Source: Acidimicrobiales bacterium
GTDB lineage: Bacteria > Actinomycetota > Acidimicrobiia > Acidimicrobiales > Palsa-688
Length of the DNA: 64,000 bases
Reading direction: 5' to 3'
NCBI GenBank assembly: GCA_036378675.1
Contig: DASUWA010000010.1
Location: 14,661-78,660, forward strand
Below the pieces are notes generated by a model. The model searched no databases and had not been told where the DNA came from. It was given only the letters and a program-made list of their open reading frames with translations. Each line of letters begins with the position of its first letter. The stretch's first letter is position 1. Both the position numbers and the translations under genes were made by a program. Below, in pieces: positions 1 to 35,226 of this stretch.

Positions 1-15
1 TCCGGATGCCAGCAT

Positions 16-1050
16 GTGGGCGTGAGGACACCGATACTGCGCCGGCGGATAGTTTTCGCTCTGCTGGCGCTGGTGCTGGTTCTCGGCGGAGGAACCCTCG
101 GATACACGGTCATCGGCTTGAGCCCACTCGACGCGCTCTACCAGACCGTGACAACGGTAAGCACCGTTGGCTTCCGGGAGCTGTTCCCGACGAGCGCGTC
201 GGCGAAGGTGTTCACCATCGTGCTGATCCTTACCGGGGTCGGCACCGTGCTTTACGCGTTTGGTGTCGTGTTGGAGGCCGTCATCGAAGGAGACCTGTTC
301 AATGTGTGGGGGAAGCGTCGGATGGAACGCACGATCAACCAGCTGAAGAACCACATCATCGTTTGCGGGTTCGGGCGGGTCGGCCGCGCGGTCGCCACAA
401 ACCTGGCTGCATCGCGCGAGGACTTCGTCATTGTCGACCAGGACGGAGAGCGTTTCGCCGACGTCGATTACCTCACCGTTGTCGGAGACGCAACAGACGA
501 CGAGGTTCTTCGCCGCGCCGGCATCGAAAGAGCGCGCGCTTTGGTCGCCGCCACAAGCACCGACACCACCAACGTCTACCTGACTCTCAGCGGCCGAGCT
601 CTGAAGCCGGACCTTTTCATCGTCGGCCGGGCGCGGATAGGCGACTCGGAGTCCAAGCTTCTGCGCGCGGGTGCCAACCGGGTGATCAACCCGCAAGCCA
701 TCGGCGGTTCACGGATCGCCGCCCTCCTCACGCAACCGGTTGTCGCCGAGTTCCTGGACGTCGTCACCCACGAGGCCCAGATGGAGTTCCGCCTCGCTGA
801 AGTTCCGGTCCCCGCGATGTGCCCACTCGCTGATCAGTCGCTTCGCGAGACCCGCCTTCGGGAACGCACCGGGGCGCTCGTGCTGGCGCTACGAGATGCG
901 GACGGCCAGTTCACCACGAACCCCGGTCCCGAGACCGTCGTATCCGGTGGAGACGTCTTGATCGTGATCGGCACGAGCAACCAGATCGACGACCTGGTCG
1001 CGTTGGCCGCGCACACCGACGGCGCGGCCAGGGCCCCGCGAGCAGAATGA
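16..1050 (+). CDS. Pore-loop cation channel (K+ channel family) with cytoplasmic RCK/TrkA-N and TrkA-C domains
   Basis: 344-aa ORF with TM1, pore helix and TM2 (DALYQTVTTVSTVGFRELFP...VFTIVLILTGVG), then Rossmann motif IIVCGFGRVGRAV and a TrkA-C-like tail. GTG start at 16. The frame is open to the window edge, so the true start could lie upstream. Confidence 0.8.
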   Translation: MGVRTPILRRRIVFALLALVLVLGGGTLGYTVIGLSPLDALYQTVTTVSTVGFRELFPTSASAKVFTIVLILTGVGTVLYAFGVVLEAVIEGDLFNVWGKRRMERTINQLKNHIIVCGFGRVGRAVATNLAASREDFVIVDQDGERFADVDYLTVVGDATDDEVLRRAGIERARALVAATSTDTTNVYLTLSGRALKPDLFIVGRARIGDSESKLLRAGANRVINPQAIGGSRIAALLTQPVVAEFLDVVTHEAQMEFRLAEVPVPAMCPLADQSLRETRLRERTGALVLALRDADGQFTTNPGPETVVSGGDVLIVIGTSNQIDDLVALAAHTDGAARAPRAE

Positions 1051-1084
1051 TCGGGTCCGATTACTGAGACACCGGGAGGTTCGG

Positions 1085-1858
1085 ATGTGGAACTCCTTCA
1101 ACACTGACGCTGACCTGGGCATCACCGCCGAGATCACCAAGTACAAGGGAGGCGGCGGAGACCAGATCCATGCCTACGTCGTCCGGCCGAAGGGCAAGGG
1201 CCCGTTCCCAGGGGTTGTCGTCGTGCATCACATGCCGGGATGGGACGAGTTCTACCAGGAGTTCAGCGAACGACTGGGCCGTCACGGTTACCTGGTGATC
1301 TGCCCGAACCTCTACGACCGGGCCGGCCAAGGCCTGCCCGACGACGTGGCGGCGAAGGTCCGGGCAGAAGGCGGTGTGCACGACGAGAGCGTCGTAGCTG
1401 ATTGCGGCGCGGCACTCGAATGGCTGCGCGCCGACCCGGCGTGCACCGGGCGCGTCGGAATCATCGGGTCCTGCTCCGGCGGGCGCCACAGCGTTCTGGC
1501 CGCATCGCTCGTCGATGGGTTCTCGGCAGTCGTAGACCTCTGGGGTGGCCAAGTCATCATGACGCCCGACCAACTGTCACCAGCCCGACCGGTCGCTCCG
1601 ATCGATTACACCGAGAGGCTTTCAACCCCGCTGCTCGGCCTGTTCGGCAACGACGACCAGTTCCCGACCCCGGAACAGGTCGACATCCACGAGGCCGAAT
1701 TGAAAAAGCACGGCAAGCAGTACGAGTTCCACCGCTACGACGGCGCCGGCCACGGTTTCTTCTACTACCACACCCCCGCTTACCGCCCTCAGCAGGCGAT
1801 GGACGGCTGGTCCAAGGTGTTCGAGTTCTTCGCTCGCGAGCTCGACAACAAGGCCTGA
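1085..1858 (+). CDS. Dienelactone hydrolase family protein
   Basis: 257-aa ORF with GGGAGG 6 nt upstream of the ATG. Has the DLH-type nucleophile elbow IIGSCSGG, VVVHHMPGWDE and a C-terminal GAGHGF motif. Confidence 0.8.
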   Translation: MWNSFNTDADLGITAEITKYKGGGGDQIHAYVVRPKGKGPFPGVVVVHHMPGWDEFYQEFSERLGRHGYLVICPNLYDRAGQGLPDDVAAKVRAEGGVHDESVVADCGAALEWLRADPACTGRVGIIGSCSGGRHSVLAASLVDGFSAVVDLWGGQVIMTPDQLSPARPVAPIDYTERLSTPLLGLFGNDDQFPTPEQVDIHEAELKKHGKQYEFHRYDGAGHGFFYYHTPAYRPQQAMDGWSKVFEFFARELDNKA

Positions 1859-1861
1859 ACC

Positions 1862-2128
1862 GTGTGCACCACGATTTCTCATTCGGTTGCGGTGCGCGGC
1901 TCAGGCCGTGGTGGATCGGGATGGTTCCCGCTGACCGAGGCGACGGTGGGATTCGATCACGCCACCCACAGTCCTGCCGAACACGCGCTGCTGCTCGACT
2001 TCACCAACTATGACATCGGGACGGGTGCGCGCGTAGCGGTGGAGATCGACCTCGCTTCCGGCAGGGCGCTCGTCGAGAAGCTCCAAGCGGCAATCGCGGC
2101 GGCGGAGGCGACCGGTCTTCCCGACTGA
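1862..2128 (+). CDS. Small conserved hypothetical protein (DUF6295-like, tentative)
   Basis: 88-aa ORF starting at a GTG 4 nt after the upstream stop, with high GC3. The N-terminus MCT...GWF.LTEATV.FDH resembles the actinobacterial DUF6295 type from memory only. Confidence 0.5.
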   Translation: MCTTISHSVAVRGSGRGGSGWFPLTEATVGFDHATHSPAEHALLLDFTNYDIGTGARVAVEIDLASGRALVEKLQAAIAAAEATGLPD

Positions 2129-2149
2129 TCGGAGAGCATTGACCTGACC

Positions 2150-2167
2150 GGGCCATAGTCATGGCCC
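2150..2167 (+). terminator. Stem-loop downstream of the 1862-2128 ORF (possible terminator)
   Basis: GGGCCAT-AGTC-ATGGCCC forms a perfect 7-bp stem with a 4-nt loop, 22 nt after the stop. There is no T-tract. Confidence 0.25.
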
Positions 2168-2304
2168 GCGTGGGGCTTTAGCACAAGCCCTGAACTCCTA
2201 CGCGGATTTCCTGATTCGCGCACGAATTCGCGCACTTCTCTTCGGCTTTTGCCGTGGTTGCGGCACGCCCGGAAGATCGCGCTTGAACGTGCCGATGGGT
2301 TGTC

Positions 2305-2892
2305 ATGCGCAACCGTGGTCTACTTCTCCGCTTGGCCACAACTTCACTGTTGGCTTTCGGCCTGGTTGGCATGTCCAATCCGGCACTGGGCAGCCCCGCA
2401 GCCGGCAACTCGACCATCGCGGGCGCCTCGGCCTACGCGGCACTGGTCGAAGGCACGCTCGGTCAGGCACCGTCGCTCGCCGCGACGGGAACGTCACTGC
2501 TCCCCACCGTCGCCCAGCTCACGCCTCCTCCCCCTCCTCCGCCGCCGCCCCCGGCACCGGCACCGGCCGCGCCGGCTCCCGCACAGGTCGTCGCGACGAC
2601 CCACCCCGCAGCTAGCGCACCGCCGGCACCAGCGCAGCCGTCCGGCTACGGCTGCGCCGCTGCTCTTGCGTACCTGACTGCTCACTCCGCCCCGGGCTTC
2701 CGGTTCGAGTGCCCCGGATACGCACTGGGACATCAGGCGATGACCTGCCTGAACGAGCCGGGGGTGTGCCCCGGCTACGGGCTCATCGCCATCAACATCC
2801 CGTGCGCCGCCGCCTACATGAACGAAGCCCACAACTCCTGGGTCGTCCTCGGCGAGGCCAGCGGCATCGACCCGTACGGTTACTGCCACTGA
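2305..2892 (+). CDS. Secreted proline-rich protein with a Cys-containing C-terminal domain, function unknown
   Basis: 195-aa ORF with signal peptide MRNRGLLLRLATTSLLAFGLVGMSNPALG, a run of 10 Pro followed by a PAPA-rich linker, and a C-terminal approximately 90 aa containing 7 Cys. Confidence 0.6.
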   Translation: MRNRGLLLRLATTSLLAFGLVGMSNPALGSPAAGNSTIAGASAYAALVEGTLGQAPSLAATGTSLLPTVAQLTPPPPPPPPPPAPAPAAPAPAQVVATTHPAASAPPAPAQPSGYGCAAALAYLTAHSAPGFRFECPGYALGHQAMTCLNEPGVCPGYGLIAINIPCAAAYMNEAHNSWVVLGEASGIDPYGYCH

Positions 2893-2952
2893 GCATTACG
2901 TAGTCGTCGCGGCCGGTCGGTGACCGGTCACTTCAGTTCGTCTCTCGGCCGG

Positions 2953-3270
2953 TCAGCCGGCCAGCCGGTTGGTGGCGGCCGGGACTTCGCTCAGGAGACC
3001 GACTTCGACGCCACCGCCGCGGCCCACCTGAGGGCAGCCCTTGGCGATCGTCAGGGCGGTCTCGATGTCCTCGGCGCTGATGATGGAATAGCCGCCGAGT
3101 TCGGTCGTCTCGGTCGAGCATTCGCCAACCGAGCGTCCCTCGAAGACTGGCTTGCCAAGCTCGACCAGGTGGTCTCCCATGCTGTCGAACCAGTTGATCC
3201 AGCCGGCGGCCGTCTCCTCCGACGGCTTGTAGCCCTTAGGGCTGCGGTACGCGAAAACAAACTGCGGCAT
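2953..3270 (-). CDS. YciI/YCII-related family protein
   Basis: 105-aa ORF with MPQFVFAYR...GGYSIISAEDIETALTIAKGCP, typical of YCII-related proteins. It is divergent from an ECF sigma gene, a common pairing. Confidence 0.75.
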   Translation of the reverse strand: MPQFVFAYRSPKGYKPSEETAAGWINWFDSMGDHLVELGKPVFEGRSVGECSTETTELGGYSIISAEDIETALTIAKGCPQVGRGGGVEVGLLSEVPAATNRLAG

Positions 3271-3450
3271 CTCTTTCCTCCGGTTTCGTGTCGGCTCGGA
3301 ACGCCGACGTTGTTGTCACCGAGGTAGACACCCGGATTTTCCGAAAGTGGGCGCCGACACACCGCCCAGTTCGCGGTCGCGGTGGTGTCAGTACGCGCGG
3401 AGGAATGCGCATGTTCGGCCACGCCCCTCAGGTGATAGGAAGGTGGAAAG

Positions 3451-20430: not shown

Positions 20431-21186
20431 TCAGGTGGGTTTGGCGGCCCCTCCCGACGCCTCTGCGGTGGCCGCCGGTGGGGCGGGCTCCAGCGCGGCG
20501 GGCTTCAACGTCCCAGCCGAGAGCTCGGCCAGGATGGCGTCGGCTTCGCTGGTCAACTCGGCGTGGTGGACGTGCATCTCCTGCACCTCCGGGCTTCCGC
20601 TCGACAGCTCGGTCTGGGCCTGAGCCTCCGCGAACTGCGTGGAGACCTTCTGGCGGATCTCATCGAAGGACGGCACGTTGTTGCCCTGGGTGAGGTCGGT
20701 CACCGCCTTCATGCTCGCGGCCATCTCCTGCTGCATTCTCGCCTGATCGACCTGGGCCAAGATCGTCGAGCGCTCGCTGAGCTTTTGCTGGAGCTGGTCT
20801 GCCGACTCCTGCACCGCCTCGCGGGCGTCGTTGGCGGCCTGCTCGAGCTGTGGGATCTGGGCCGAGAGCGACTGAATCTGCTCACGGATCGAGGCGATGT
20901 TGGTGGCGAAGGCCCGGGCGGCATCGAGGTTGCCTTGCTGCTGGGCGGCCAGCGCCGACTTGGTGTACCGGGCTTCCTGGGTGGACAGCTCGGACAGGCG
21001 CATCTTGGCCAGCTTGTCCTGGGCGATCACGTGGCTGGCGGCGGCCTCCAGGTCGCGATGGTGCTCCTGGAGGGCCCCTATGGCCTGTTCCAGCTGGACC
21101 TTGGGGTCGGCGTGGGTGTCGAGCTCGCTCTGGGCCTTGGCCTGGGCGTAGCTGTTGGCCCTCTTGAACAGATTGCCCCACGACAT
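20431..21186 (-). CDS. pspA: PspA/IM30 family membrane-stress protein
   Basis: 251-aa all-helical, Q/A/E-rich ORF. Its N-terminus ...LFKRANSYAQAKAQSELD..DPKVQLEQAI..L.EH is typical of PspA/IM30. Confidence 0.85.
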   Translation of the reverse strand: MSWGNLFKRANSYAQAKAQSELDTHADPKVQLEQAIGALQEHHRDLEAAASHVIAQDKLAKMRLSELSTQEARYTKSALAAQQQGNLDAARAFATNIASIREQIQSLSAQIPQLEQAANDAREAVQESADQLQQKLSERSTILAQVDQARMQQEMAASMKAVTDLTQGNNVPSFDEIRQKVSTQFAEAQAQTELSSGSPEVQEMHVHHAELTSEADAILAELSAGTLKPAALEPAPPAATAEASGGAAKPT

Positions 21187-21228
21187 GGTGTCTCCTTCGC
21201 GTTTCAGGGATTCGTCTCATTCACCAAG

Positions 21229-21302
21229 TGGAGACGATCGGATTCGAACCGACGACCCCCTGCTTGCAAAGCAGGTGCTCTAGCCAGCTGAGCTACGTCC
21301 CC
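21229..21302 (-). tRNA. tRNA-Ala: tRNA-Ala (anticodon TGC)
   Basis: The reverse complement GGGGACGTAGCTCAGCTGGCTAGAGCACCTGCTTTGCAAGCAGGGGGTCGTCGGTTCGAATCCGATCGTCTCCA folds as a cloverleaf. It has the G3:U70 Ala identity pair, anticodon loop TTTGCAA and T-loop TTCGAAT. CCA is not encoded. Confidence 0.95.
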
Positions 21303-24267: not shown

Positions 24268-24732
24268 TTAGCTGCCGTTTCCTAGCTCGTACGAGTCGGA
24301 GGGCCGCCCGTCGGGGGAACGCCCGATCCAAGTGATTGTGAGGTGCGTGAACTGCGGACCGCCGGCGCCTTTGTCCACCGCGTTGGTCAGCTGCAGGTTG
24401 GCTTGACCGGACAGCTGCGACTTCCCCGGTTGAAGGTCAACCGTACCGGTGCCGCTTGCGCCGGACGAATCCCACGAACTCCACTGGATGCCGGTAGCCA
24501 TCGTCCCGCTTGTCCCACAGACGATCAGCAGAGTCGTCGGACGGTACGCACCCGCGCCGCAATCGGGGACGGTCACTTCCAACGACACCCGGGTCGTGGT
24601 GGAGGCGGACGTGACCGTGTTTGTGGGCGAAGAGGTCGTGGAACTGGTCCCGACAGCACGTGACGACCCGCAGGCTGCGCCTGCGAGGGACAGCGCCACC
24701 GCGTACAGGCCGAACCGGCCTGTACGGCTCAC
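24268..24732 (-). CDS. Secreted protein or possible lipoprotein, Ser/Thr-rich linker, function unknown
   Basis: Trimmed to the GTG at 24732, which forms a GTGA overlap with the upstream stop. Signal-like RTGRFGLYAVALSLAGAAC-GSS, then a TSSTTSSPTNTVTSASTTT linker and a beta-rich domain. Confidence 0.55.
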   Translation of the reverse strand: MSRTGRFGLYAVALSLAGAACGSSRAVGTSSTTSSPTNTVTSASTTTRVSLEVTVPDCGAGAYRPTTLLIVCGTSGTMATGIQWSSWDSSGASGTGTVDLQPGKSQLSGQANLQLTNAVDKGAGGPQFTHLTITWIGRSPDGRPSDSYELGNGS

Positions 24733-25505
24733 TTGCCGGCGACTCCTGCGGGAGCCGGAATCCGCAGGATCCGGAACGAAACGACGATTAGTGCCGCACA
24801 CACGAGACCCAGCACGGGCTGCGCGTACGAGATCGCGATCACCGCTGTCGTGGCTTGAACAGCTATCGCCAACCTACGAACCGGTTCGCCGGCTCGATCC
24901 AGCTTTCTGTGCAGCACGCGTAGCTCCTGAGGGTCCTGCGCGCTAGTTGTCAGGAGAATCGCGCTTCCCCTGGCCGCGCCGAAACCCGCACAGATCGATA
25001 ACGCGACCCATGGTTGCGTGCTGAGAACAGCAAGAGCCAGGAACACGAACACGGCCGACGTCATCACGTAGGTGGCAACGCCTGTCCCGATCTGCCATCC
25101 GAAGCCACTCGCGTAAACCCACCCGCGGTAGCGAGACAACCAACGATCGTCGACCTGCCGTCTTACAACAGGAAGAACGTTCCCGAATACCCGAGCATCG
25201 ACAGCAGCGCCGAGCAACGCGCTTCCGCCGGCGACCAGCGCGACCACTGCGGGATGGCTCCGCGCGCCGGCGCTCGACGCTCCCGTCGTTACCGCGAAGG
25301 CTGCAAGTCCTAGCGTCGCTCCGCCTGCAGTTGAACCGAGGACGAACCAGGCCGCGGTGACACCGTAGCGATGGCCCCGGCTGCGCTCTCCGAAAGGCGT
25401 GAGGCTCGAGAGCATCGACAGCCCGCATGGAGACCAGGTGGATCTCGCCGCCGCGGCCACCGCTGTTGCTGTTGCCAGAACCAAGAGAATCACGTCGAGG
25501 TGCAT
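24729..25505 (-). CDS. Polytopic membrane protein, CcdA/DsbD-like thiol-disulfide transporter candidate (possibly MauF-like)
   Basis: 258-aa ORF with about 6 TM segments. Has a Cys in TM1 (STWSPCGLSML) and a Cys in a later TM (WVALSICAGFG). GGAGGA lies 3 nt before the ATG. Confidence 0.6.
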   Translation of the reverse strand: MHLDVILLVLATATAVAAAARSTWSPCGLSMLSSLTPFGERSRGHRYGVTAAWFVLGSTAGGATLGLAAFAVTTGASSAGARSHPAVVALVAGGSALLGAAVDARVFGNVLPVVRRQVDDRWLSRYRGWVYASGFGWQIGTGVATYVMTSAVFVFLALAVLSTQPWVALSICAGFGAARGSAILLTTSAQDPQELRVLHRKLDRAGEPVRRLAIAVQATTAVIAISYAQPVLGLVCAALIVVSFRILRIPAPAGVAGK

Positions 25506-25519
25506 CGCTCCTCCAGCCT

Positions 25520-26758
25520 TTACGCAGCCGATCCGAAGAACCCGGCGTCGCCGAAGGTGAAGATTCCGCCGTCCGCGGCGACCAACCAGTAACCCCTGCC
25601 GGTGGGTGTCGCCGCCATGCCGACCACCGGCCGGTTCAGGCGCTCGCTTCCGGTCGAACCGAAGAAGCCGGCGTCACCGAAATTGAAAATGCCCCCGTCC
25701 GCGGCCACCAACCAGTAACCAGACCCGGTGGGTGTGGTGGCCATCCCGACGACCGGTTGGTTGAGATGCTGCCCCCCCATGGAACCCTCGAACGGCGCGT
25801 TGAAGTCGAAGACCCCGCCGTCCGACGCATCGAGGCGATAGCCGGACGTGACTTGATCAACCGAGATTCCGGTAACCGGGCGGTTGAGATGCTGCGATGC
25901 CATCGAACCCTCGTACTGGGCGTCTCCGAAGGTGAACACGCCGCCGTCCGACGCGACCAGGTAGTAGCCGTTGCCGGAGACCGATCGGCACATTCCTACT
26001 AGAGGGCGGTTGAGCGGCTGGCCGGAGAGCGACCCGTACAACTGCGCGGCGCCGAACGCTCGGACGGAGCCGTCGTTGAAGACGATCCAATATCCGTTTC
26101 CTGCGACGGTCGCTGCCATACCCACCGCGTACGTTCCGGTCGGACCGTTCTGGCACGGCGCAAAGTGATTCGCAGTGTTGTTGTCCGTTGCCGCGACGGT
26201 AGAGCAGGTCGGGTCGAAGACCCATGGCGGAGTACAGGACACCATCCGGCACGCGATCCTCCCGCTGCACCCGATTTCCTGATGGCATTGCCCGTACCGG
26301 AACTCGGTACAGCCCACGTGGCGGTAGTCGCAGCTCCCAAGCGCGCACTCGCATGTGAGGCCGTCGCACCCGGGGCAGAAGGTGCCGCCGCTGCAGCCGC
26401 ACCCCTGGCACTCACCCATGCAATCGATGTAGTAACGGGGGCCGGCGCAGTAGACCGACCCGTCCGCCTTCCACCAACCGCCGGCGAACGTTCCGGGAGG
26501 ACACGCGTTGATCCCGTCGTTGATCGTGCAGCAGAACTGCGTATACCCGTCGCAACAGAGCTGGGAGCAATTGCAGCTGGTGCCCGGCACGCACTCGCAG
26601 ATGAACGCATACGCCGAGCCGGGCCTTATGAGGAATTCGACCGGCGAGACCGAAAGCGCCGCGGCGGTGAGGGTCGCCCTGCTCACGAAGCTCCGCCTCG
26701 TTGTCCGTGAGACAAGGAACTCACCGATCGTTGATGTGATCGTCACTGACCGCTCCAT
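25520..26758 (-). CDS. Tat-exported fusion protein: 26-Cys MauA-like (amine dehydrogenase light-chain-like) domain plus five approximately 41-aa propeller-type repeats
   Basis: 412-aa ORF with twin-arginine signal SRTTRRSFVSRATLTAAAL...GSAYA. Residues about 52-202 carry 26 Cys, including CC-x8-CPPGT-x4-WW. Residues about 210-412 are 5 repeats ending GYWLVAADGGIF(T/N)FGDAGFFGS. An alternative GTG start at 26746 gives a GTGA overlap with mauE. Confidence 0.75.
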   Translation of the reverse strand: MERSVTITSTIGEFLVSRTTRRSFVSRATLTAAALSVSPVEFLIRPGSAYAFICECVPGTSCNCSQLCCDGYTQFCCTINDGINACPPGTFAGGWWKADGSVYCAGPRYYIDCMGECQGCGCSGGTFCPGCDGLTCECALGSCDYRHVGCTEFRYGQCHQEIGCSGRIACRMVSCTPPWVFDPTCSTVAATDNNTANHFAPCQNGPTGTYAVGMAATVAGNGYWIVFNDGSVRAFGAAQLYGSLSGQPLNRPLVGMCRSVSGNGYYLVASDGGVFTFGDAQYEGSMASQHLNRPVTGISVDQVTSGYRLDASDGGVFDFNAPFEGSMGGQHLNQPVVGMATTPTGSGYWLVAADGGIFNFGDAGFFGSTGSERLNRPVVGMAATPTGRGYWLVAADGGIFTFGDAGFFGSAA

Positions 26759-27285
26759 CCATCCCGGACCAGGCGCCTAGCGGTCGGCAGAGGATTGGTC
26801 CAAACAACGTACGCAAGAAGGATCACTACCACCGTGACCAGCGCGAGCGGAACGCCCTGCCACGGCTGGCCGGAGAAGACCGACGCGAGACTTCGCGGAC
26901 CGGATGCTGACCACCACACCCCGCACAGCACCGCGCCAGCGTTCAGCGCCGCGTGCGTTATGGTCGGAGGGGAGTCGGGCTTGCCGAAGCAGCCGCACGA
27001 TGACAGCGGCCACCTTCGCCGCAGAGCGCCCGCGACGAACACGGTAAACGCTGCGTAGGAGAGCGCCACGATCGCGCCGGTCATCGCGCCCGGCAGCGCG
27101 AGCGCTGCGAGCGCAACGGCTAGCTCGCAGGCTGCGCCCGCGCGAACGGCGTTTCTGCTGGCCGGTATGCGGGCTACGTGAAGGGCGCGCACCGTGGTGT
27201 CCGGCCGGGCGATCTTCGCCAGCCCTGCGGTTCCGAGGAGCACGACCTCTGCGAGGTAAGGGGCGGTGATCGCGGGTGCCGTCAT
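26743..27285 (-). CDS. MauE/DoxX-family redox-associated membrane protein
   Basis: Trimmed from ORF 26743-27945 to the ATG at 27285 (ATGA overlap with the upstream stop). 180 aa, 4 TM segments, with the characteristic SSCGCFG motif. Confidence 0.75.
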   Translation of the reverse strand: MTAPAITAPYLAEVVLLGTAGLAKIARPDTTVRALHVARIPASRNAVRAGAACELAVALAALALPGAMTGAIVALSYAAFTVFVAGALRRRWPLSSCGCFGKPDSPPTITHAALNAGAVLCGVWWSASGPRSLASVFSGQPWQGVPLALVTVVVILLAYVVWTNPLPTARRLVRDGWSGQ

Positions 27286-27752
27286 GCGGGTTGCACCGAA
27301 AACGATCCGATGAGCTGGTTTGCCCGAGCCGTCAACGGAACCCGGTTGGCAATCGATCCGATAACCGCGTACAAGCAGAAGGCCCGTCCGCGGACGGTGA
27401 CGAACCGTTGCACGCCGGCCTGGCCGCGGATGACGCGCTGGAGTTGCCGGGGCCTGAAGGCGTCGGGCGTCAAACCGGGGATGGCTGCGGCGCTGCGGAA
27501 CAACGCGCTCCCGGCGGCGTCGGGCCCGAACTCGAGAAGGCTCACGAAGACGTCCGAAGCACCGAGCATCTCGACGAGACCTCCGCCGTAGTCGCCGCGC
27601 TCCGATGGGATCGGCACGGTCGCGGCGTGCACGACCGGAAAGGTTCGCTCTTCTGGCCTCGCAGGCCGGCGGTAGATCGTGGCTTCCCAGCCGCTGGGCG
27701 GAACGACCGCCAGACCCATGGCTTCGATCCGACGGATCCCGGAGGTCGTCAT
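27282..27752 (-). CDS. Hypothetical cytoplasmic protein, translationally coupled on both sides
   Basis: 156-aa ORF with no signal peptide or TM segment. ATGA overlaps at both its start (27749-27752) and its end (27282-27285). No family recognised. Confidence 0.6.
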   Translation of the reverse strand: MTTSGIRRIEAMGLAVVPPSGWEATIYRRPARPEERTFPVVHAATVPIPSERGDYGGGLVEMLGASDVFVSLLEFGPDAAGSALFRSAAAIPGLTPDAFRPRQLQRVIRGQAGVQRFVTVRGRAFCLYAVIGSIANRVPLTARANQLIGSFSVQPA

Positions 27753-28543
27753 CCTCGGTCCGGGTACAGGCTGGGATCGCCCGGGCGGATCCCCGCCTCG
27801 GCGAGCGCCCGATCGGCATCGGCATCACGTTCCCGATCGGCGCGCGACCGGCGCCGGCCGAAACTTGTGGTCCCGTCCGCAACCGCATTCGAAACAAGGG
27901 TCCGCACCTGATCCCACGTGGACGCAACGCCCTCCCCGACGACACGCCCGGCTTCTCCAGAGACGTAGACGAAGTAGGGCGCGTAGGGAATGTCGTAGTG
28001 CTCCCAGGCTTCGGTGGACATCACGACAGGAACCCGCGAGGTACCCGGCCCGCCGCCGCCGGTGTGTCCCACGATCGCGCCCGGGGACTCCGCCTCTGTC
28101 CCTCGCGTCACGACAACCAGCCGGGCTCCGCCGGGAACGGCGGGGGCGTCGCCTCGGAACGAGTCCCAGAACCCGCGGCACGTCGCGCACCCCGAAGTCA
28201 GGAACGCGAGGAGGGTGTCGTGATTCACGTCGGCGACCGCGACGCTGAGCGCATCGCCTTGCGGGTTTTGGCCGGTGATATCGGTTATGTCCGAGGCGAG
28301 AGGGCGTTCCGGGGTGGGACGAACCCCGTTGCCGGCCGGGTCGCCGGATCCCCGAACGGTGGGCGGCGCGACTGCATGGGATGTCGCGGCGTCAAGATCT
28401 CCGGATGAAGAGTCTGCGGGGTCGAGGCTCACACCCATCTGGTGGAGCGTTCTCAGTACCTCGGCGTGAGCGCGCAGGAGTCCAGCCACGAGAAGAGCCA
28501 GCAACGCGACCGCAACGGTAAGACCGACGACGAGCGCCGTCAT
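27749..28543 (-). CDS. Membrane-anchored thioredoxin-fold protein (MauD/TlpA-like)
   Basis: 264-aa ORF with N-terminal TM MTALVVGLTVAVALLALLVAGLL, a CxxC motif in FLTSGCATCRGFW and a Trx-like ...PYAPYFVYV segment. Confidence 0.7.
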   Translation of the reverse strand: MTALVVGLTVAVALLALLVAGLLRAHAEVLRTLHQMGVSLDPADSSSGDLDAATSHAVAPPTVRGSGDPAGNGVRPTPERPLASDITDITGQNPQGDALSVAVADVNHDTLLAFLTSGCATCRGFWDSFRGDAPAVPGGARLVVVTRGTEAESPGAIVGHTGGGGPGTSRVPVVMSTEAWEHYDIPYAPYFVYVSGEAGRVVGEGVASTWDQVRTLVSNAVADGTTSFGRRRSRADRERDADADRALAEAGIRPGDPSLYPDRG

Positions 28544-28597: not shown

Positions 28598-30163
28598 TTA
28601 TTGATAGTTGAGAACCGCAGGCTCGCGCACGTCTTTGAGGCTCAATTCGTTGGTCCGGTCACTGGCTTGGGCAGAGTTCACCGCTCGGACCCCGGCGAGC
28701 GCCGGCCAGACGCCGGCAAGAAGAACGCTTATGTGCAGGCCCGCAAAGGCGACATTGTTCAAAGTGCCGGGAGACCTCCCGCGAACCAGACCGTCGACGA
28801 TGGTCCCGACGAGGACCGCGAGAGCCAGCAGCGCCGGCCACACCGCCCGCGGCTGCCGGCCCGACCTGCCGACCTTCGGCGTGACCACGAACGACGCCCG
28901 GGCGCCGACCAGAGCGCGCAGAGCGGCGCTGATGTGAATCCAGAAGCTCGACTCCATCAAGGCGAACGCAGCGAAGCTGTAGCTCCCTTGGCCGGCGACT
29001 GCGACGGTGACCATGCTGGCGCAGAAGTACGGAACGAAATGCGCGAGGAACTGATTGGCGGTCGCCCCGGCAAGGGCCTGCTGGCCGCCGAGGATTCGCA
29101 CAACCGGCAGGGTCATGTAGACCAGGTAGGTCCAGCCGGTGAGAAAGTAGAGGGCGGACAGGAGGAACTGGACCTTCTGGCGAAGCGGCAGCCTTGCGCG
29201 GATCGCGGTAGCTGCTCCGGCGAGGCAACCTCGGGACCATCTCTGTTGCTGGCTGACGTATGAAGCCATGTCCTCCGGGCCGAGCCCGCGGGCGAGGACC
29301 TCCGGCACGTATACGGTGCGCCAGCCTCGCTCCTGGAGGTAGATCGACAGTTCGAAGTCCTCGGTTACCGAACCTTCGGGAATCCCGCCGACTTGTTCCA
29401 GCGCAGACCTGCGGAATACGACGTTGGTCCCGCAGCAGAACATCGATCCGAGCGCGTCCTTGCCCCGGGCTATCACGCCGAAGAACAGGGCTTGCTGGCT
29501 CCACGCGGCCGCTGCCACCGGGTTGGTCGCGTGGTTGGAGTAGTACTGCGGAGTCTGCACGACAGCGACATCGGTGCTGGAGAAGTGCGGAACCGTTGAC
29601 ATCAGAAAATCCGGATCAGGCGCGTGGTCGCAGTCGAAGACCGCGACCAGGGGCGCCGTCGTGGACCGGAGGGCGTGGTTGAGGTTGCCGGCTTTGGCGC
29701 CGCGGCGATCCCCGCGGCGAAGGTATCCCGCGCCGTATCCGGCCGCGAGCTGGGCGATCTCGTCGCTGTCGCCGTCGTCGCAAACGATCACCGAGAAGTT
29801 CGGGTAGTCCAGCTGGCAAGCCGCCGCGAGGGTGGACTCCACGACGCGGGGCTCCTCGTTGTACACGGGAATGAGCACGTTGAGCGGAGGCGCCCACGAC
29901 AGATCCGGGCGAGGGGCGGGTTCTCGAGCCCGCGAGATCGTCCACCAGAACCCCGTCGCCTGCACGAGGTTGAAGATCTCCGCGGCGAGAAGCATTCCGT
30001 ACAGCACCGGGTTGCCAACTCGTCCCGGGGAGAGAAGCCAGACGAAGTACCAGACGCTGAAGACCAGGTCCAGTGGAAGGAGAACCCGCAGCCGGCGGCG
30101 GGCACGCTCCGATCCTTCTGTAGGAGACCAGGTCGTGGCGTTCACAGTTTGAACACGGCTCAT
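28598..30163 (-). CDS. Processive family-2 glycosyltransferase, cellulose synthase (BcsA/CslA)-like, no PilZ domain
   Basis: Trimmed from ORF 28598-31516 to the ATG at 30163 (ATGA overlap with the upstream stop; alternative ATG at 30178). Motifs VIVCDDG, AKAGNLN, VFDCDH, TEDFELS and QQQRWSRG, followed by multiple C-terminal TM segments. Confidence 0.85.
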   Translation of the reverse strand: MSRVQTVNATTWSPTEGSERARRRLRVLLPLDLVFSVWYFVWLLSPGRVGNPVLYGMLLAAEIFNLVQATGFWWTISRAREPAPRPDLSWAPPLNVLIPVYNEEPRVVESTLAAACQLDYPNFSVIVCDDGDSDEIAQLAAGYGAGYLRRGDRRGAKAGNLNHALRSTTAPLVAVFDCDHAPDPDFLMSTVPHFSSTDVAVVQTPQYYSNHATNPVAAAAWSQQALFFGVIARGKDALGSMFCCGTNVVFRRSALEQVGGIPEGSVTEDFELSIYLQERGWRTVYVPEVLARGLGPEDMASYVSQQQRWSRGCLAGAATAIRARLPLRQKVQFLLSALYFLTGWTYLVYMTLPVVRILGGQQALAGATANQFLAHFVPYFCASMVTVAVAGQGSYSFAAFALMESSFWIHISAALRALVGARASFVVTPKVGRSGRQPRAVWPALLALAVLVGTIVDGLVRGRSPGTLNNVAFAGLHISVLLAGVWPALAGVRAVNSAQASDRTNELSLKDVREPAVLNYQ

Positions 30164-32931
30164 ACCTTGAACACCCATACGGTCGCGTTCGCCTTCTTCA
30201 CGACAGCCACCAGACGGTCCTGGTGGCGCAGGTCGGACAAGTATCTGCCGAGCTGCGAAGGCTCGTTGGGAGCCATGAGATTGGAGCTCCCGAGCACGAA
30301 CAGCTCGGTGCCCGCGGGTCGTCCCACCTCGGCCTGACCCAGCTGTACCGCGTCGATGTGCGGCGCGTAGTAGGAGACGACAAGATCGAGGTCTCCGGGT
30401 GAGTAGACGAGGAGGTCGCCGGGGCGGTATCTGACCTGCACGGCGTGCAACGCACCGGCGAAGTCGTAGAGGCGCGGGTTGGACCCGTTCACCTGTTCGT
30501 CGCCGAGCGACCCGGCGAGTAACGCGACGATCGCGACGCATGCTGTGGCCTGCATGCGGATGCTCCGGGACGCTCCGGTTACCAGACGGGAGCAGAGCAA
30601 CAGAAGAGCCACGACGACTCCCGACAAGTAGCGGACCTCGAACAGGTTGCGTTTGACCAGTCCGATCGCGAGGAGCAGAACGACCGGAACCACGGCAGTC
30701 GCCAGCACCGCCGCCGTGCGATCGGTCATGTTCCGGCCGAGCAGGAACAGGGCCAGAAAGATCCCGATGGGCCAAAGAGCCACGATTGCGGCCATGACAG
30801 CGGCCGAGTGGTACCCCACCACTGCCCAGGCCAGGTTGGCCAGGACTGTGTACACCGAGATCGATTGCGCGCCTGCAAGCCCGACCTGCGACGGTGCTCC
30901 GAATCCCTTGCCGGCGGTCTGGTTGACGACGAACTGGTGCCAGGCAAACGGCTCGAGGGGCGCGATCAGCACGGCCATGAGGAACGTGGCGATAAGCAGG
31001 GCGACCAGTAGTTGCCGGCGCTGCTGGGGCCGGCGGATGATTGCCGCTACGAATACAGCCTGTTGCGTGACGAGTTGGAAGACCGCGAAGTACTCGGTCC
31101 AGACGAGAGCCGCGCTCGACAGGACGTAGATGACCCACCCGCCGGCGGTCCCGTACCGAAGGACGCGCGCTTGACCCCAAAGGGCGAGAAGTGCGAAGAG
31201 CATGAACAGCGAGTACATGCGGACTTCCTGCGAGTACCACACAAGGATCGGGGCGACCGACGCGAGCACGCCGGCGATGACGCCCGACCTGCGGTCCCAC
31301 AGGTCGCGCGCCGCCAGGTAAGCGGCGGGCACGGCAAGCGTTCCGGCCAGGACCGACGGCAACCGCATCGCGAGGGGCCCGCTTCCAATGAGATGGTCGG
31401 TCGTCCAAAGAACGGCGAAGTACAGCGGCGGATGGACGTCGGTGGAACCGAGGTTCTTCAGCATCTCGCCGAAAGGCATCGACGCCTGATGGATGCTCGT
31501 CGCCTCGTCGAGCCATATGCCTCTGGGCACGACGAACCTCACCGCCAACCCGGCGAGGGTGACTGCCGACATGGCCAGGACAACCGGATCGTGGGCGGCG
31601 CGTCCTAGGCTGCTAATAGCGCGCCGAGGCAAGCCGTGCGCGGTCGACGAGACGGCCGCTTCGATCCGCTGGCCACTCCTGATGAAATGACTGCCGACGG
31701 CCGGCGCTCGAAGAACGACGAGCGACTCGACGCCGATACCCACCAGTAGCGCCGCGGTAGCGGCCACCGTCGTGGCCGCGACGGTGCCGACACTTCGGCC
31801 CCATATGGCAATCGCAACCCACTGACCGACGACGACAACACCGGCCACCAAAGTTGTACGCGGACCTGCCCCGGTTGCGCAGCGGTGCGCGACAAGGACC
31901 CGGCCGATTCCCAGCAGGCCCATCGCCATCATGTACGGCACCAGGTACGGCGTGATGGACCCGTAGCGGGATCCGAACAACGCGACGCTCAACGCGTGCG
32001 GAGCGATCGCAGTCACGGACACGGCGGACATCCCGAGCACCCCGGCAAGACCCGCCGCGACCGCCAGGCTGTGCTTGTCCCGCCGTACGGCTCGGGGCAG
32101 CAGAACGAGCGGGATGGTGACAGTCGCGAACGCGGCAGCACCTCCGAGTGTGGACAGGGCAGCGTAAGCGGCTGCCTTTCCTCCGGGCAGGATCGCGTTG
32201 GCGAACACGAGATCCTGGGTCTGCAGCAAAGCGAGCAAGGCGAAAGCCGCTGCTGTCCAGCCGGCCGTTCCCTCCCTGCCTGCGGACGCCCGCGATTGGT
32301 AGAGCCGGCGCCGGGCATGCCGTCGGCCACGGGCGACTTCTCTCGCCGTGTATGCAGCGATGACCACGCCCGCCGCCGCTCCGACCGGACCGGTCCAGGC
32401 GGCGAGCGAGAGCCCCACGGAAAGCCGGACCGCCGGTTCCGCCACGAGGCTCTCTACGAGACGCCTATGCCGCCTGGTCCCGTATAGACGACCGCGGTCC
32501 AGCGCGAGCGGCGCGGACGCGGGGAGCACTGCGGCAAGGCCGACGACCATCGGGATGGGAACGTTGAGTAGTGCTGCCAACCCCGGTGAGGCGGCGGCCA
32601 TAACGACCGCGAGCAGCAGGCTCACGGCCGAGACCTTCCGCAGGAGAGCATCGCGTTTGCGTGGATCGACGGCCGTCGCAGCCGAAAGGCTCGTCGCCGG
32701 CAGGCTGAGAACGAGGTAGAGCCCGAGGAAGACGCTCAGGCGGGCGAACCCTGCCGGATCCAGGATTCGCGCAGCGGCAAGGGCAAACACGAGGTTGCCG
32801 GCACCGGCGGCCATCTGTCCCAGCGCGACACCGGCCTGTTCACCTCCGAGCCGGCGCCCCGTTGTAGCCGGTTCACGGTAGGAGAGGACGACGAGCTGTT
32901 CTTCGGCGCCCCCCTGAGTGGTTAAAGCCAC
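30160..32931 (-). CDS. Fusion of a Wzx/MOP-type polysaccharide flippase-like domain (N) and a GT-C (ArnT/PMT-like) glycosyltransferase domain (C)
   Basis: 923-aa ORF. The first approximately 420 aa has 10-12 TM segments with flippase-like composition. It is followed by ...GIWLDEATSIHQA...DVHPPLYF...MRLPSVLAGTLAVPAAYL..., typical of GT39/GT83-type GT-C enzymes, then a soluble C-terminal domain. Confidence 0.7.
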   Translation of the reverse strand: MALTTQGGAEEQLVVLSYREPATTGRRLGGEQAGVALGQMAAGAGNLVFALAAARILDPAGFARLSVFLGLYLVLSLPATSLSAATAVDPRKRDALLRKVSAVSLLLAVVMAAASPGLAALLNVPIPMVVGLAAVLPASAPLALDRGRLYGTRRHRRLVESLVAEPAVRLSVGLSLAAWTGPVGAAAGVVIAAYTAREVARGRRHARRRLYQSRASAGREGTAGWTAAAFALLALLQTQDLVFANAILPGGKAAAYAALSTLGGAAAFATVTIPLVLLPRAVRRDKHSLAVAAGLAGVLGMSAVSVTAIAPHALSVALFGSRYGSITPYLVPYMMAMGLLGIGRVLVAHRCATGAGPRTTLVAGVVVVGQWVAIAIWGRSVGTVAATTVAATAALLVGIGVESLVVLRAPAVGSHFIRSGQRIEAAVSSTAHGLPRRAISSLGRAAHDPVVLAMSAVTLAGLAVRFVVPRGIWLDEATSIHQASMPFGEMLKNLGSTDVHPPLYFAVLWTTDHLIGSGPLAMRLPSVLAGTLAVPAAYLAARDLWDRRSGVIAGVLASVAPILVWYSQEVRMYSLFMLFALLALWGQARVLRYGTAGGWVIYVLSSAALVWTEYFAVFQLVTQQAVFVAAIIRRPQQRRQLLVALLIATFLMAVLIAPLEPFAWHQFVVNQTAGKGFGAPSQVGLAGAQSISVYTVLANLAWAVVGYHSAAVMAAIVALWPIGIFLALFLLGRNMTDRTAAVLATAVVPVVLLLAIGLVKRNLFEVRYLSGVVVALLLLCSRLVTGASRSIRMQATACVAIVALLAGSLGDEQVNGSNPRLYDFAGALHAVQVRYRPGDLLVYSPGDLDLVVSYYAPHIDAVQLGQAEVGRPAGTELFVLGSSNLMAPNEPSQLGRYLSDLRHQDRLVAVVKKANATVWVFKV

Positions 32932-33989
32932 GGATCGGGGGCCAGCGGGACGCCCTCGAGGTCGGTCGTCTCGACGTCACCGCGCTCGAGGACCAGACGC
33001 AGAAGCGCGAGTCCCGCCTCCGCCCTGGCGACTTCTTCCTTCACGGCTGCAGGACTTGGGCCTGCGGAGTCGGCAGCGCGCAGAACAGACGGAGCGAGTG
33101 ACTCTCGGAAACCTGCCGGGGGGAGCCAGGTCTGGTGGAGGCGGCACGCGAGGCCGCGGATGCGGGTCTCGACCGCGATTCCCACCACCGGCACTCCGGC
33201 GGCGGCCGCCGCGTGGATCGCCCGGTACCGCATGGCAACGACGGCGCCCGACTCGGCCATCGCCTCGGCCGCTCCGGTGAGGTCCATCGCCGGAGGCACG
33301 ATCTCCGCGAGCCCGCCGGCGGAGCGAATCTCGGCGAATAGCTCCTCGGCGAGCGCGAAGTCGGCGGTCCCGAGCCCCGTCCACGGCAGAAGGTCGACTC
33401 GCACGCCGTGGAGCGCGAGCTCTCTCAAGCCGAGGAACAACTCGGTTTGGACCCCGCGCGCAGCCGAGGCGTCGAGCGCCACCACGACCGACTGGCCGGA
33501 TGACGGGCCTGAAGCCGCCGGCGACAGGGACATCCACGCCGGGTCCGCAGCAACCCGGATCGGCGCGGGCACACCCGCACCCGCCAGGCATGAAGCCGAT
33601 TCGTCGTCGCTCAGAAGGACGAGATCGGCGCGCCGCACCAGCCGGCGTGCCGCCCACCTCTCGCTCGCCGTAAGAGGACCGCCGGCGCTGACTCCTACCA
33701 GCGCCAGCGGCCGGCGTGGCCGGTTGACGCTCCTCGGGAAGGAGGAATCGAGCGGGGAGGTGAGCGCTGCCGCCGTCGCGGCAGCGAAGCCTTTTCCGGA
33801 GAAGAGGTCGCAGCCGGCCAGCACCACAGCATCCGCCTGCCGGCCCTCGTCCGAGAGCGAGGCCCGAATCGGTCCCGCCGAGGAAGCCCGAAGGTCGTGG
33901 CCGTCCAGGGCAGAGCGGAAGGCGCGAACCAGCGCTCGCGCCCCCAGCGGATCACGCCCGGTGACCGCGGGAAGCAGAACGCTTGGCAT
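32922..33989 (-). CDS. Polysaccharide pyruvyl transferase (CsaB-like) family protein, tentative
   Basis: 355-aa ORF. The pattern GRDPLGARALVRAF...ADAVVLAGCDLF...RRADLVLLSDDESASCL...VAADPAW resembles the PS_pyruv_trans layout. Confidence 0.5.
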   Translation of the reverse strand: MPSVLLPAVTGRDPLGARALVRAFRSALDGHDLRASSAGPIRASLSDEGRQADAVVLAGCDLFSGKGFAAATAAALTSPLDSSFPRSVNRPRRPLALVGVSAGGPLTASERWAARRLVRRADLVLLSDDESASCLAGAGVPAPIRVAADPAWMSLSPAASGPSSGQSVVVALDASAARGVQTELFLGLRELALHGVRVDLLPWTGLGTADFALAEELFAEIRSAGGLAEIVPPAMDLTGAAEAMAESGAVVAMRYRAIHAAAAAGVPVVGIAVETRIRGLACRLHQTWLPPAGFRESLAPSVLRAADSAGPSPAAVKEEVARAEAGLALLRLVLERGDVETTDLEGVPLAPDPWL

Positions 33990-35226
33990 CGGTCACCTCC
34001 TCGTAGATCTCGAGGTGACGCCGGGCCACTTCTGGCCACGATCGGCCTTCGGCAAGGCCTGCGGACCATCTCTCCACTTCAGCGAGCTCGGTGCCTCGCT
34101 TCGCCAGGGACTCGAGTCGCTGAGCGAGCAGGCCCGGCTCGAGGGGCGTCGACATCCCAGGCGGCAGACCGGTCATCTCGGCGAGCGGGGGTGACAGCAA
34201 GGCGGGGACGCCGTACTCCAATGCCAGCGCCAGAACTCCGCTACTCGAAAAAGCCGTTGGATACGCGAGCAAAACTGCGTCGGCGGCTCGGAACCAGCGG
34301 CTCACGTCGGGTTCGGGAACGTACCCGGTGAAGGTCGCAGTTGCACCGAAACGCTCTTCGAGTCCGTCCAGGTAACCCTGCCCGGAAAGTCGGGGATGCT
34401 CGCCTCCGGCCACCACGAGACGAACCGGATGCCCGGCGATCTCGGCAGCCGAGAGCGCCGCTTCGAGCCCCTTGTACGGTGCGACGAAGCCGAAGCACAG
34501 AACGACGAACTCGTCCGGTTCGATGCCGTACTGCGCCCGTAGCGCTGACGGGCGCCCGTCTGACTGTCCCGAAACCTCGTGTCCCTGTCGCAGGGCCGGG
34601 TCCGCCGCCGCACTCCTGATCGACCCGACGGGGAGCACGACCGACCCAGGGACATGCCTCGCGAACGCGCGTTCGTGGACGATCGTTCGGCGGGCGATTC
34701 GACCGATCGACTGCTGCAGCGTCGACAGGCCCGCCCTCGCCAAGGGCGCAGGCATCGACACGCGGTGCAGTTCGGTGAAGGATTTGTCCACCTGGCCGGG
34801 CCGGACGACCTGGTGCATCGTGACGACAGGTCCGGTTCCGGCTCTACGCAACCTGGCCAGCCCGCCGATCAAGCCTGGAACGGCCTCGGGGCCGCCGAAC
34901 AGGAACGCCTCGTGCTGAACATGGGTGACCCGAGCCCCGCTCCGCAGTGCAGCGACGGACGCGCGCATGAGACCGGCTGGGCCCTTGGCGAAGCAGCGTC
35001 GCACCCGGACCCGGCCGTCCAGTTCCGACGGCGAGCCCGGGTCGTTCGAGGGCGCCACAACGGTGACGGTTGCGCCCTCGTCGGCCAAGGCCCTCGCCAG
35101 GTTCTGGGAGTACCAGGCGACGCCGCTGGTCGTGGGAGAGCCCGGACTTGGGTACGGAGCGATCATGGCGATGTCGGGGCGTTGCGCTTCAATCGGCGCC
35201 AACGAGCTCCTCCTCGTCGACTGCAA
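33952..35226 (-). CDS. Family-4 (GT-B) glycosyltransferase
   Basis: 424-aa ORF with IAMIAPYPSP...SGVAWYSQNLARALADEG and a C-terminal ...AVLLAYPTAFSSSGVLALALEYGVPAL (E-x7-E-like region). The listed start is a TTG at 35226; the ATG at 35166 (MIAPYP...) is an equally plausible start. Confidence 0.8.
   Translation of the reverse strand: MQSTRRSSLAPIEAQRPDIAMIAPYPSPGSPTTSGVAWYSQNLARALADEGATVTVVAPSNDPGSPSELDGRVRVRRCFAKGPAGLMRASVAALRSGARVTHVQHEAFLFGGPEAVPGLIGGLARLRRAGTGPVVTMHQVVRPGQVDKSFTELHRVSMPAPLARAGLSTLQQSIGRIARRTIVHERAFARHVPGSVVLPVGSIRSAAADPALRQGHEVSGQSDGRPSALRAQYGIEPDEFVVLCFGFVAPYKGLEAALSAAEIAGHPVRLVVAGGEHPRLSGQGYLDGLEERFGATATFTGYVPEPDVSRWFRAADAVLLAYPTAFSSSGVLALALEYGVPALLSPPLAEMTGLPPGMSTPLEPGLLAQRLESLAKRGTELAEVERWSAGLAEGRSWPEVARRHLEIYEEVTDAKRSASRGHRA

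Follow-up and report, generated by a model that had tools for sequence, protein, structure and literature searches.

The window analysed here is a 64,000-nucleotide (nt) stretch of the Acidimicrobiales contig DASUWA010000010.1 (G+C ∼65%), and the gene under study, the fourth of a five-gene cassette, encodes a single polypeptide (the target) consisting of a leader for twin-arginine translocation (Tat), a cysteine-rich domain (the head) and a C-terminal set of repeats. We favour, with a probability of roughly 0.6, the reading that the target is an exported cell-envelope protein whose head, with ∼13 disulfides, is the dedicated client of an oxidative-folding pathway encoded in the same operon. 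On this reading, disulfides would be generated by MauE, which is DsbB-like, lies in the membrane and has CGC as its active site, and would pass to a membrane-anchored, presumably thioredoxin-like CxxC protein; this order also sets the presumed direction of electron flow. The CxxC protein would then oxidise, and perhaps shuffle, the 26 cysteines of the head. Two further cassette proteins, a soluble one of 156 amino acids (aa) and a polytopic membrane protein, would be obligatory helpers, perhaps acting as a chaperone that binds the leader or the precursor and as a scaffold in the membrane, and the repeats would form a five-bladed propeller, an exchangeable C-terminal module probably binding wall or glycan polymers.

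The precedent for this arrangement comes from the mau genes. MauE replaces DsbB in Escherichia coli, requires a CXC motif, typically CGC followed by FG, and is proposed to work via thioredoxin-fold partners such as MauD (10.64898/2026.03.05.709764). In addition, MauA, a Tat-exported protein with six disulfides, depends on both MauE and MauD, as cited in two reports (10.64898/2026.03.05.709764; PMC7794033), and this dependence provides a model for a head served by MauE. The locus is a new version of the MauE/MauD/MauA theme, with an uncharacterised family as the client.

A conserved five-gene cassette around MauE

The protein encoded by gene 3 is a MauE, matching the Pfam model PF07291 with an E-value of 7e-13 (49 bits, cut-off 27) and carrying the expected CGC motif (Table 1). 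Genes 1–4 overlap by 4 nt at every junction (ATGA at 27752-27749 between genes 1 and 2, ATGA at 27285-27282 between genes 2 and 3, and GTGA at 26746-26743 between genes 3 and 4), which implies a fixed stoichiometry of the CxxC protein, the 156-aa protein, MauE and the cysteine-rich client. The ATG of gene 5, preceded by GGAGGAG, lies 14 nt past the target stop codon. For the target itself, the true start is likely to be the GTG at 26746, giving 408 aa, because this codon forms the GTGA overlap with the MauE stop, has a GGAG 6 nt upstream, and agrees with the starts called in the homologues.

Table 1. Cassette genes and parts of the target, with their positions in the window
Feature	Position	Strand	Remarks
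Gene 1, CxxC protein, 264 aa	27749..28543	-	Transmembrane helix at the very start; C119-A-T-C122 (nt 28178-28189)
Gene 2, 156-aa soluble protein	27282..27752	-	Without signal peptide; PPGW...RGDYGxG...GQxGxQRF...GRAFCLY
Gene 3, MauE/DoxX-family membrane protein, 180 aa	26743..27285	-	CGCFG; C97-G-C99 at nt 26989-26997
Gene 4 (target), Tat leader, Cys-rich domain and propeller	25520..26758	-	412 aa from ATG; 408 aa from the likelier GTG at 26746
Twin-arginine leader, residues 1-51	26606..26758	-	RR at nt 26693-26698; predicted cleavage after AYA
Cys-rich domain, residues 52-202	26153..26605	-	26 Cys; from the open reading frame (ORF) sequence and homologue alignments
Five 41-42-aa repeats, modelled as a beta-propeller	25523..26131	-	Starts at residues 211, 253, 295, 336 and 378
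Gene 5, polytopic membrane protein, 258 aa	24729..25505	-	Motifs RSTWSPCGLSML (nt 25410-25436) and RRQVxExWLxxYRxWVYGxGFGxQxG

The cassette recurs well beyond the window. All five proteins accompany the fused form of the head in Acidiferrimicrobium sp. IK and in other metagenome-assembled genomes (MAGs), and the cassette proteins also accompany a standalone 204-aa form in a distant lineage, so that the MauE linkage is kept around fused and standalone forms alike. By tblastn over 85 loci, the 156-aa protein was found at 75, the CxxC protein at 73, the polytopic membrane protein at 67 and MauE at 56, this last count being a lower bound because the query is divergent and hydrophobic. The 156-aa protein is therefore the partner most consistently co-located with the Cys-rich domain. 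The position of gene 5 inside the cassette differs between lineages. A few cassette loci (L008, L020 and L025) come from MAGs labelled Acidobacteriota, Dormiibacterota or Burkholderiales, and are probably binning errors or transfers.

The CxxC protein is presumed to be thioredoxin-like, an analogue of MauD or DsbA, on the strength of its motif. Both cysteines (C119/C122), W126 and P189, a candidate cis-proline, are invariant in the orthologue alignment. The protein matched no Pfam or NCBIfam model, that for MauD included, and a 28-sequence profile retrieved nine weak matches from the PDB, all sub-threshold (E 0.15–0.65). Six of these nine are thioredoxin-fold oxidoreductases, the names including StoA, YkuV, thioredoxin, CITRX and BF1870.

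As for the two putative helpers, profiles of 3 and 29 sequences of the 156-aa protein gave no match in Pfam, NCBIfam or the PDB, and the 258-aa membrane protein had none in Pfam or NCBIfam. The conserved motifs of the latter can also be written RSTWSPCGLSMLSS(I/L)TP and RRQV(D/N)ExWLxxYRxWVYGxGFGxQxG. A CcdA/DsbD-like role, considered for this protein on account of an ‘SPCG’ motif, was rejected, since some orthologues lack the motif Cys (WSPGESML) and no family model matches.

Paired behaviour of the head cysteines

The target contains 27 cysteines, of which C257 lies in the second blade of the propeller and the other 26 lie within the 151 residues of the head, exactly the count given in the original prediction; they make up 17% of the head residues. 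An alignment of 81 homologues shows conservation of 70% or more in 24 of the 26 Cys columns, 11 of them without exception, so that the Cys richness is not a matter of chance. Those columns that do vary co-occur (phi 0.89 and 0.83). There are 22, 24 or 26 Cys in 18 of the 20 complete standalone mature proteins, and 26 in all fused members examined. In the alignments, cysteines come and go two at a time, and their counts are even. Taken together with the MauE linkage, this paired behaviour favours 11–13 disulfides formed by a private oxidative-folding pathway. One of the two suggestions in the original prediction, that of a hyper-disulfide-stabilised protein, is thus supported, if indirectly, by the paired gains and losses, the even counts and the MauE and CxxC neighbours.

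Conservation of the head extends to residues other than cysteine, with W95, W96, R108, Y109, D112, F153, R154, Y155, G156, R171 and T195 all invariant. The strongly conserved WW, RYxxD and FRYGQ residues suggest that the head has a specific ligand-binding or catalytic site, rather than being a mere scaffold.

A widespread family with exchangeable C-terminal modules

The target is a member of a widespread, uncharacterised family of Actinomycetota. We found no database record with its exact sequence; full-length homologues are abundant (50–89% identity), nearly all from Acidimicrobiia and named ‘hypothetical protein’, and the nearest relatives come from Acidimicrobiales MAGs. When the head was used as the only query, standalone proteins of ∼205–275 residues were retrieved from MAGs labelled Mycobacteriales, Frankiaceae, Egibacteraceae and Acidimicrobiia, which have the Tat leader and the Cys-rich domain in common. 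Searched exhaustively, a set of 1.84 billion representatives yielded 429 clusters of the domain at 50% identity, and it is encoded at at least 554 loci in species-representative genomes. In most of the matches listed, the domain immediately follows the leader, near residue 50; the proteins are 145–742 residues long. Literature searches on MauE-linked Cys-rich proteins in Actinobacteria, and on the motifs of the family, returned nothing about it. The original prediction knew of no characterised example, which stands in the sense that we found no named or studied member, but the architecture is common and not unique to the window.

What follows the head varies greatly. A tally of C-terminal partners in 96 representatives of the domain gave LGFP repeats in 19, CW_binding_2 in four, ricin-type lectin, SLH and DUF4214 domains in two each, FG-GAP repeats in up to three, a tectonin domain in one and, in one further case, a fusion to MauE itself. 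The Cys-rich head is therefore an independent module and the constant part of these proteins, and the tail is an exchangeable, usually wall- or glycan-binding, module.

In the target the tail consists of five units of 41–42 aa, as originally described. The accompanying comparison with RCC1 blades did not hold, and an RCC1 identity was rejected: the target has no hit, RCC1_2 was found in only 2 of 81 members (best E 0.0037), and the repeat length of 41–42 aa compares with 51–68 aa for RCC1. Indeed, the repeats matched no Pfam repeat family and no PDB sequence. The 41-aa repeat ‘GYWLVAxDGGIFxFGDAxFxGS’ has no Pfam or NCBIfam model, yet at least 8000 proteins match it at E ≤ 0.001, and elsewhere repeats of this type follow unrelated extracellular N-terminal domains (prenyltransferase-like, NHL/SBBP, Ig-like and cadherin-like). 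In the AlphaFold2 model, the repeat region has block-mean predicted local distance difference test (pLDDT) values of 91–98 from residue 211 onwards, with three to four strands per repeat; the values for the head are 66–86 in this full-length model, with a mean of 64 for the domain modelled alone. The Foldseek comparison with propeller families, proposed with the original prediction, matched the target model to WD40-type propellers with a probability of 1.0 and a template modelling score of ∼0.3 over the whole query. On the model, then, the repeats fold as a beta-propeller. By analogy with the exchangeable wall- or glycan-binding tails of other members, this propeller probably binds wall or glycan polymers.

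Most homologues of the target have six repeats (∼450 aa), and five are present in the target and in a few other members, among them P0041 and P0073. The last two repeats of the target are ∼91% identical in protein and 77% identical in DNA, with a period of 126 nt (Tandem Repeats Finder for DNA). Since the DNA identity is only 77%, the two copies are old and kept by selection, and do not stem from the assembly. For the same reason, and because other members also have five, assembly collapse or a very recent duplication as the source of the five blades was ruled out.

The export signal and the site of disulfide formation

Read off the target sequence, the leader contains a TTRRSFVS motif, then a hydrophobic stretch, then AYA, so that the twin-arginine signal noted originally for residues 1–51 is present in all its parts, although the score against the NCBIfam TAT_signal model is sub-threshold (14.1 bits, cut-off 16.7). 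Some homologues of the target carry the NCBI name ‘twin-arginine translocation signal domain-containing protein’. An alignment of 14 sequences shows that L15, R18, R21, R22, F24, P39, P46, A49 and Y50 are kept in the leader, and its consensus recurs in the standalone Cys-rich proteins. By its motifs, therefore, the target is predicted to be exported as a Tat substrate.

Several considerations weigh against a private oxidative-folding pathway as we have outlined it. The first is that the case for a thioredoxin fold in the CxxC protein is made from motif logic and sub-threshold PDB matches. Secondly, the pairwise behaviour of the cysteines would equally fit other pairwise cross-links. Thirdly, the strong conservation of residues other than Cys suggests a function of the head beyond that of a disulfide scaffold, and our reading names none. 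The fourth concerns the Tat pathway, which normally exports folded proteins, and so raises the problem of where the 13 disulfides would form.

The last consideration is one of topology, for which our statements are crude charge tallies and not topology predictions. For the CxxC protein, we compared the N-terminal flank in the window and in 68 orthologues from the 85 loci (L001–L085). At many of the loci shown, the longest ORF leaves 0–4 residues, with no Lys or Arg, ahead of the transmembrane helix, and the near-invariant LLR(S/G)HAE(I/V)LRxLH that follows the helix brings two conserved positive charges. In MauE (43 orthologues), Lys and Arg cluster at three places, loop 1 (mean 4.6), the end of helix 3 and the C-terminal tail (2.9), and a five-helix parse places the CGC loop on this Lys/Arg-rich side, the reverse of what is reported for other MauE proteins, in which it is periplasmic. 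If the positive-inside rule is applied, the redox sites of both proteins could face the cytoplasm, which would fit poorly with an extracytoplasmic relay of the DsbA/DsbB type.

The charges flanking the CxxC helix, the grouping of the MauE CGC loop and the lack of a signal peptide on the 156-aa partner together prompt a variant, which we think rather improbable, in which the cassette would be a disulfide-forming machine on the cytoplasmic face of the membrane and the head would be oxidised and folded before export. Oxidation and folding at this stage would explain the use of a pathway for folded proteins. If true, it would amount to a pre-export oxidative-folding route in a bacterium with a reducing cytoplasm, and might bear on the long-standing question of the disulfide source for the Tat-exported MauA.

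Relationship of the head to MauA

The original prediction saw the target as a possible self-contained, MauA-like quinone enzyme with the propeller in the place of the heavy chain. Whilst attractive, this ‘fused methylamine dehydrogenase’ reading is unsupported and is corrected here. The Pfam model PF02975 (Me-amine-dh_L) did not match the target even at E ≤ 10, and matched none of the 81 family members at E ≤ 1. A profile of the family found no match among PDB sequences, even though MauA chains are present in that library. Foldseek of the domain-only model (mean pLDDT 64) against the PDB, the structural check proposed with the original prediction, returned no MauA or aromatic amine dehydrogenase (AADH) chain, the best E-value being 3.0.

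Profile–profile comparison by hhalign needs to be read with care. The MauA reference sequence is identical to PDB 2BBK chain L. With leaders included, the family and MauA aligned with a probability of 96%; the alignment consists mostly of the Tat leader, and it is the leader that produces this figure. When only the mature domains were compared, the probability fell to 4–7% (P 0.009 and 0.005), over just 13 columns around G..xCPPGT, and a score as high as that of the mature domains arose from column-shuffled MauA profiles in 6/400 and 4/500 trials. Aligned globally, the real profiles scored 1.3, below the mean of 3.0 for the shuffles. A hidden Markov model of the leader gave 11–26 bits for MauA leaders, compared with 1.5–18 bits for E. 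coli Tat leaders, so that the resemblance between the MauA and target leaders is partly generic. Membership of the MauA family was consequently rejected as unsupported: the Pfam model, PDB profile search, hhalign with single and family profiles, the two shuffle controls and Foldseek leave only the CPPGT motif.

The placing of two residues that would form tryptophan tryptophylquinone (TTQ) fared no better. The tryptophans of the target are at positions 95, 96 and 179, inside the segments to which attention had been drawn. W95 and W96 are invariant, and position 179 is Trp in 65, Tyr in 14 and Val in two of the 81 family members. In a permissive hhalign alignment, W96 falls opposite the quinone-bearing beta-W57 and D112-C113 opposite beta-D76-C77, and the second Trp of the MauA cofactor, beta-W108, falls opposite G163.

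It is unlikely, but worth setting out, that the head is nonetheless a very distant relative of the MauA/AADH light chains. In that case it would carry a Trp-derived cofactor on W95/W96 (for example Cys-Trp or another quinone) and act as a wall-tethered redox enzyme, with the 156-aa and membrane proteins replacing MauG. The MauE and CxxC neighbours would then mirror mauE-mauD-mauA, both families would share a long Tat leader as well as the G..xCPPGT motif, and the pairings of W96 and of D112-C113 would be meaningful, W95, W96 and D112 being invariant. The figures given above count against this: the leader drives the 96% probability, the mature domains align over 13 columns and give no signal globally, the MauA models and structures gave no match, and the second TTQ Trp has no conserved counterpart. 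Moreover, no MauB, MauG, cupredoxin or cytochrome gene was found in the five annotated neighbourhoods, and no member of the MauB or MauG families in the window flanks scanned. The propeller, for its part, is not an obligate heavy-chain partner, because it is one of many interchangeable C-terminal modules and the head also occurs alone. What survives of the proposed link to mau is the MauE gene, translationally coupled to the target, but not the homology of the head to MauA.

Other roles for the cysteines

Less probable still is that the cysteines are metal ligands, forming Cu(I) or Zn thiolate clusters or Fe-S centres loaded in the cytoplasm, and that the target serves in surface metal storage, sequestration or electron transfer, with the CxxC and MauE proteins handling metal or holding thiols reduced. 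Cytoplasmic loading would give a reason for the use of Tat, which classically serves cofactor-loaded proteins, and Tat-exported, Cys-rich copper storage proteins (Csp1) exist. The Cys content of the head is in keeping with such a role, as are the soluble cassette partners without signal peptides and the charge tallies that put the redox motifs on the cytoplasmic side. However, the Tat pathway of Actinomycetota also exports many cofactor-less proteins, we found neither ferredoxin-type CxxCxxCxxxCP motifs nor metallothionein-like matches, and Cys gained and lost in twos, with even totals, fit disulfides better than sites of three or four Cys. The conserved neighbour, MauE, is in addition a demonstrated disulfide generator.

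Finally, the head might be a secreted disulfide-knotted toxin, a bacteriocin-like effector or a product resembling a ribosomally synthesised and post-translationally modified peptide (RiPP), targeted to the walls of competitors by its C-terminal module and with the membrane protein as immunity or export factor; candidate RiPP clusters in Streptomyces in which mauE (with or without mauD) adjoins Cys-rich precursor genes were flagged by decRiPPter (PMC7794033), and lectin- or wall-binding fusions are common in wall-targeting effectors, but we consider this very improbable, since a highly conserved domain of 150 residues (50–89% identity), encoded in no fewer than 554 species-level genomes, is what one would expect of a housekeeping part of the envelope and not of a fast-evolving toxin, and no protease, ABC exporter or modification enzyme was found in the annotated neighbourhoods.

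Comparison with known systems

The closest parallel to the cassette is the mau module. In both, a MauE with a CXC motif and a CxxC partner adjoin a small, Cys-rich protein with a long Tat leader and a CPPGT motif, whose maturation they serve in mau and would serve here. The differences are considerable: the client here is not a detectable homologue of MauA and has 26 Cys, compared with 12 in MauA, and the MauB heavy chain, MauG and amicyanin are missing from the cassette. The cassette adds the 156-aa and polytopic membrane proteins, its client is fused to wall- or glycan-binding modules, and the host belongs to the Actinomycetota (Acidimicrobiia) and is not a methylotrophic proteobacterium.

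The DsbB–DsbA and VKOR–thioredoxin systems likewise pair a quinone-linked membrane disulfide generator with a thioredoxin-fold carrier, the fold of the carrier being presumed in our case, and MauE can substitute for DsbB (10.64898/2026.03.05.709764). Those systems are general and have many substrates, whereas the one described here is operon-linked and translationally coupled to a single client family, and the predicted topology of its CxxC protein is ambiguous.

With regard to the tail, the ∼41-residue blades modelled as a propeller resemble those of small-repeat propellers (tectonin, WD40-like and five-bladed tachylectin-type), and the propeller occupies the position held by the tectonin domain in the close relative P0210. 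In contrast to those propellers, the repeats of the target match no Pfam propeller and no PDB sequence, and the number of blades is five or six within the family. The overall plan, in which a functional domain at the N-terminus precedes an exchangeable module for wall binding, is that of Gram-positive surface proteins anchored by LGFP, SLH or CWB2 domains, except that here the functional domain is an uncharacterised Cys-rich fold and the anchor an uncatalogued propeller repeat.

That MauE generates disulfides in the manner of DsbB is a recent finding, in which the enzyme was portrayed as a generalist. If the reading of a dedicated client is right, the locus supplies a natural, genetically linked MauE client in Actinomycetota, with ∼13 disulfides in 150 residues and occurring in hundreds of species. 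Accompanying the head gene is a fixed set of four partners, of which two lack known relatives, and this would make the locus a compact system for asking how MauE transfers disulfides to its substrates. It also bears on the passage of a disulfide-dependent fold through Tat, and on the role of an abundant, unannotated envelope family in soil and freshwater Acidimicrobiia.

Genomic surroundings

Directly upstream of the cassette and on the same strand, positions 28598-35226 (-) hold a set of surface-glycan genes encoding a GT2 cellulose-synthase-like protein, a PMT_2 (GT39-like) mannosyltransferase-like protein, a polysaccharide pyruvyl transferase and a GT4 protein. The homologous loci L001, L004 and L005 do not show this linkage. 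At L001 (Acidiferrimicrobium sp. IK; positions 1-3296), the cassette instead adjoins genes for a type III polyketide synthase, a UbiA prenyltransferase, a methyltransferase and an FAD monooxygenase. These form a possible alkyl-quinone or phenolic-lipid cluster, which is of interest in view of the presumed use of quinones by MauE; the polyketide synthase/UbiA linkage is absent from the window. Downstream of the cassette, a lipoprotein-like ORF at 24268-24801 (-) has a weak LpqN-like match (E 0.008) and is kept only in the closest relatives (7 of the 85 loci). Further downstream, a gene of the PspA/IM30 family at 20431-21186 (-) adjoins the only tRNA gene of the window, tRNA-Ala(TGC) at 21228-21302.

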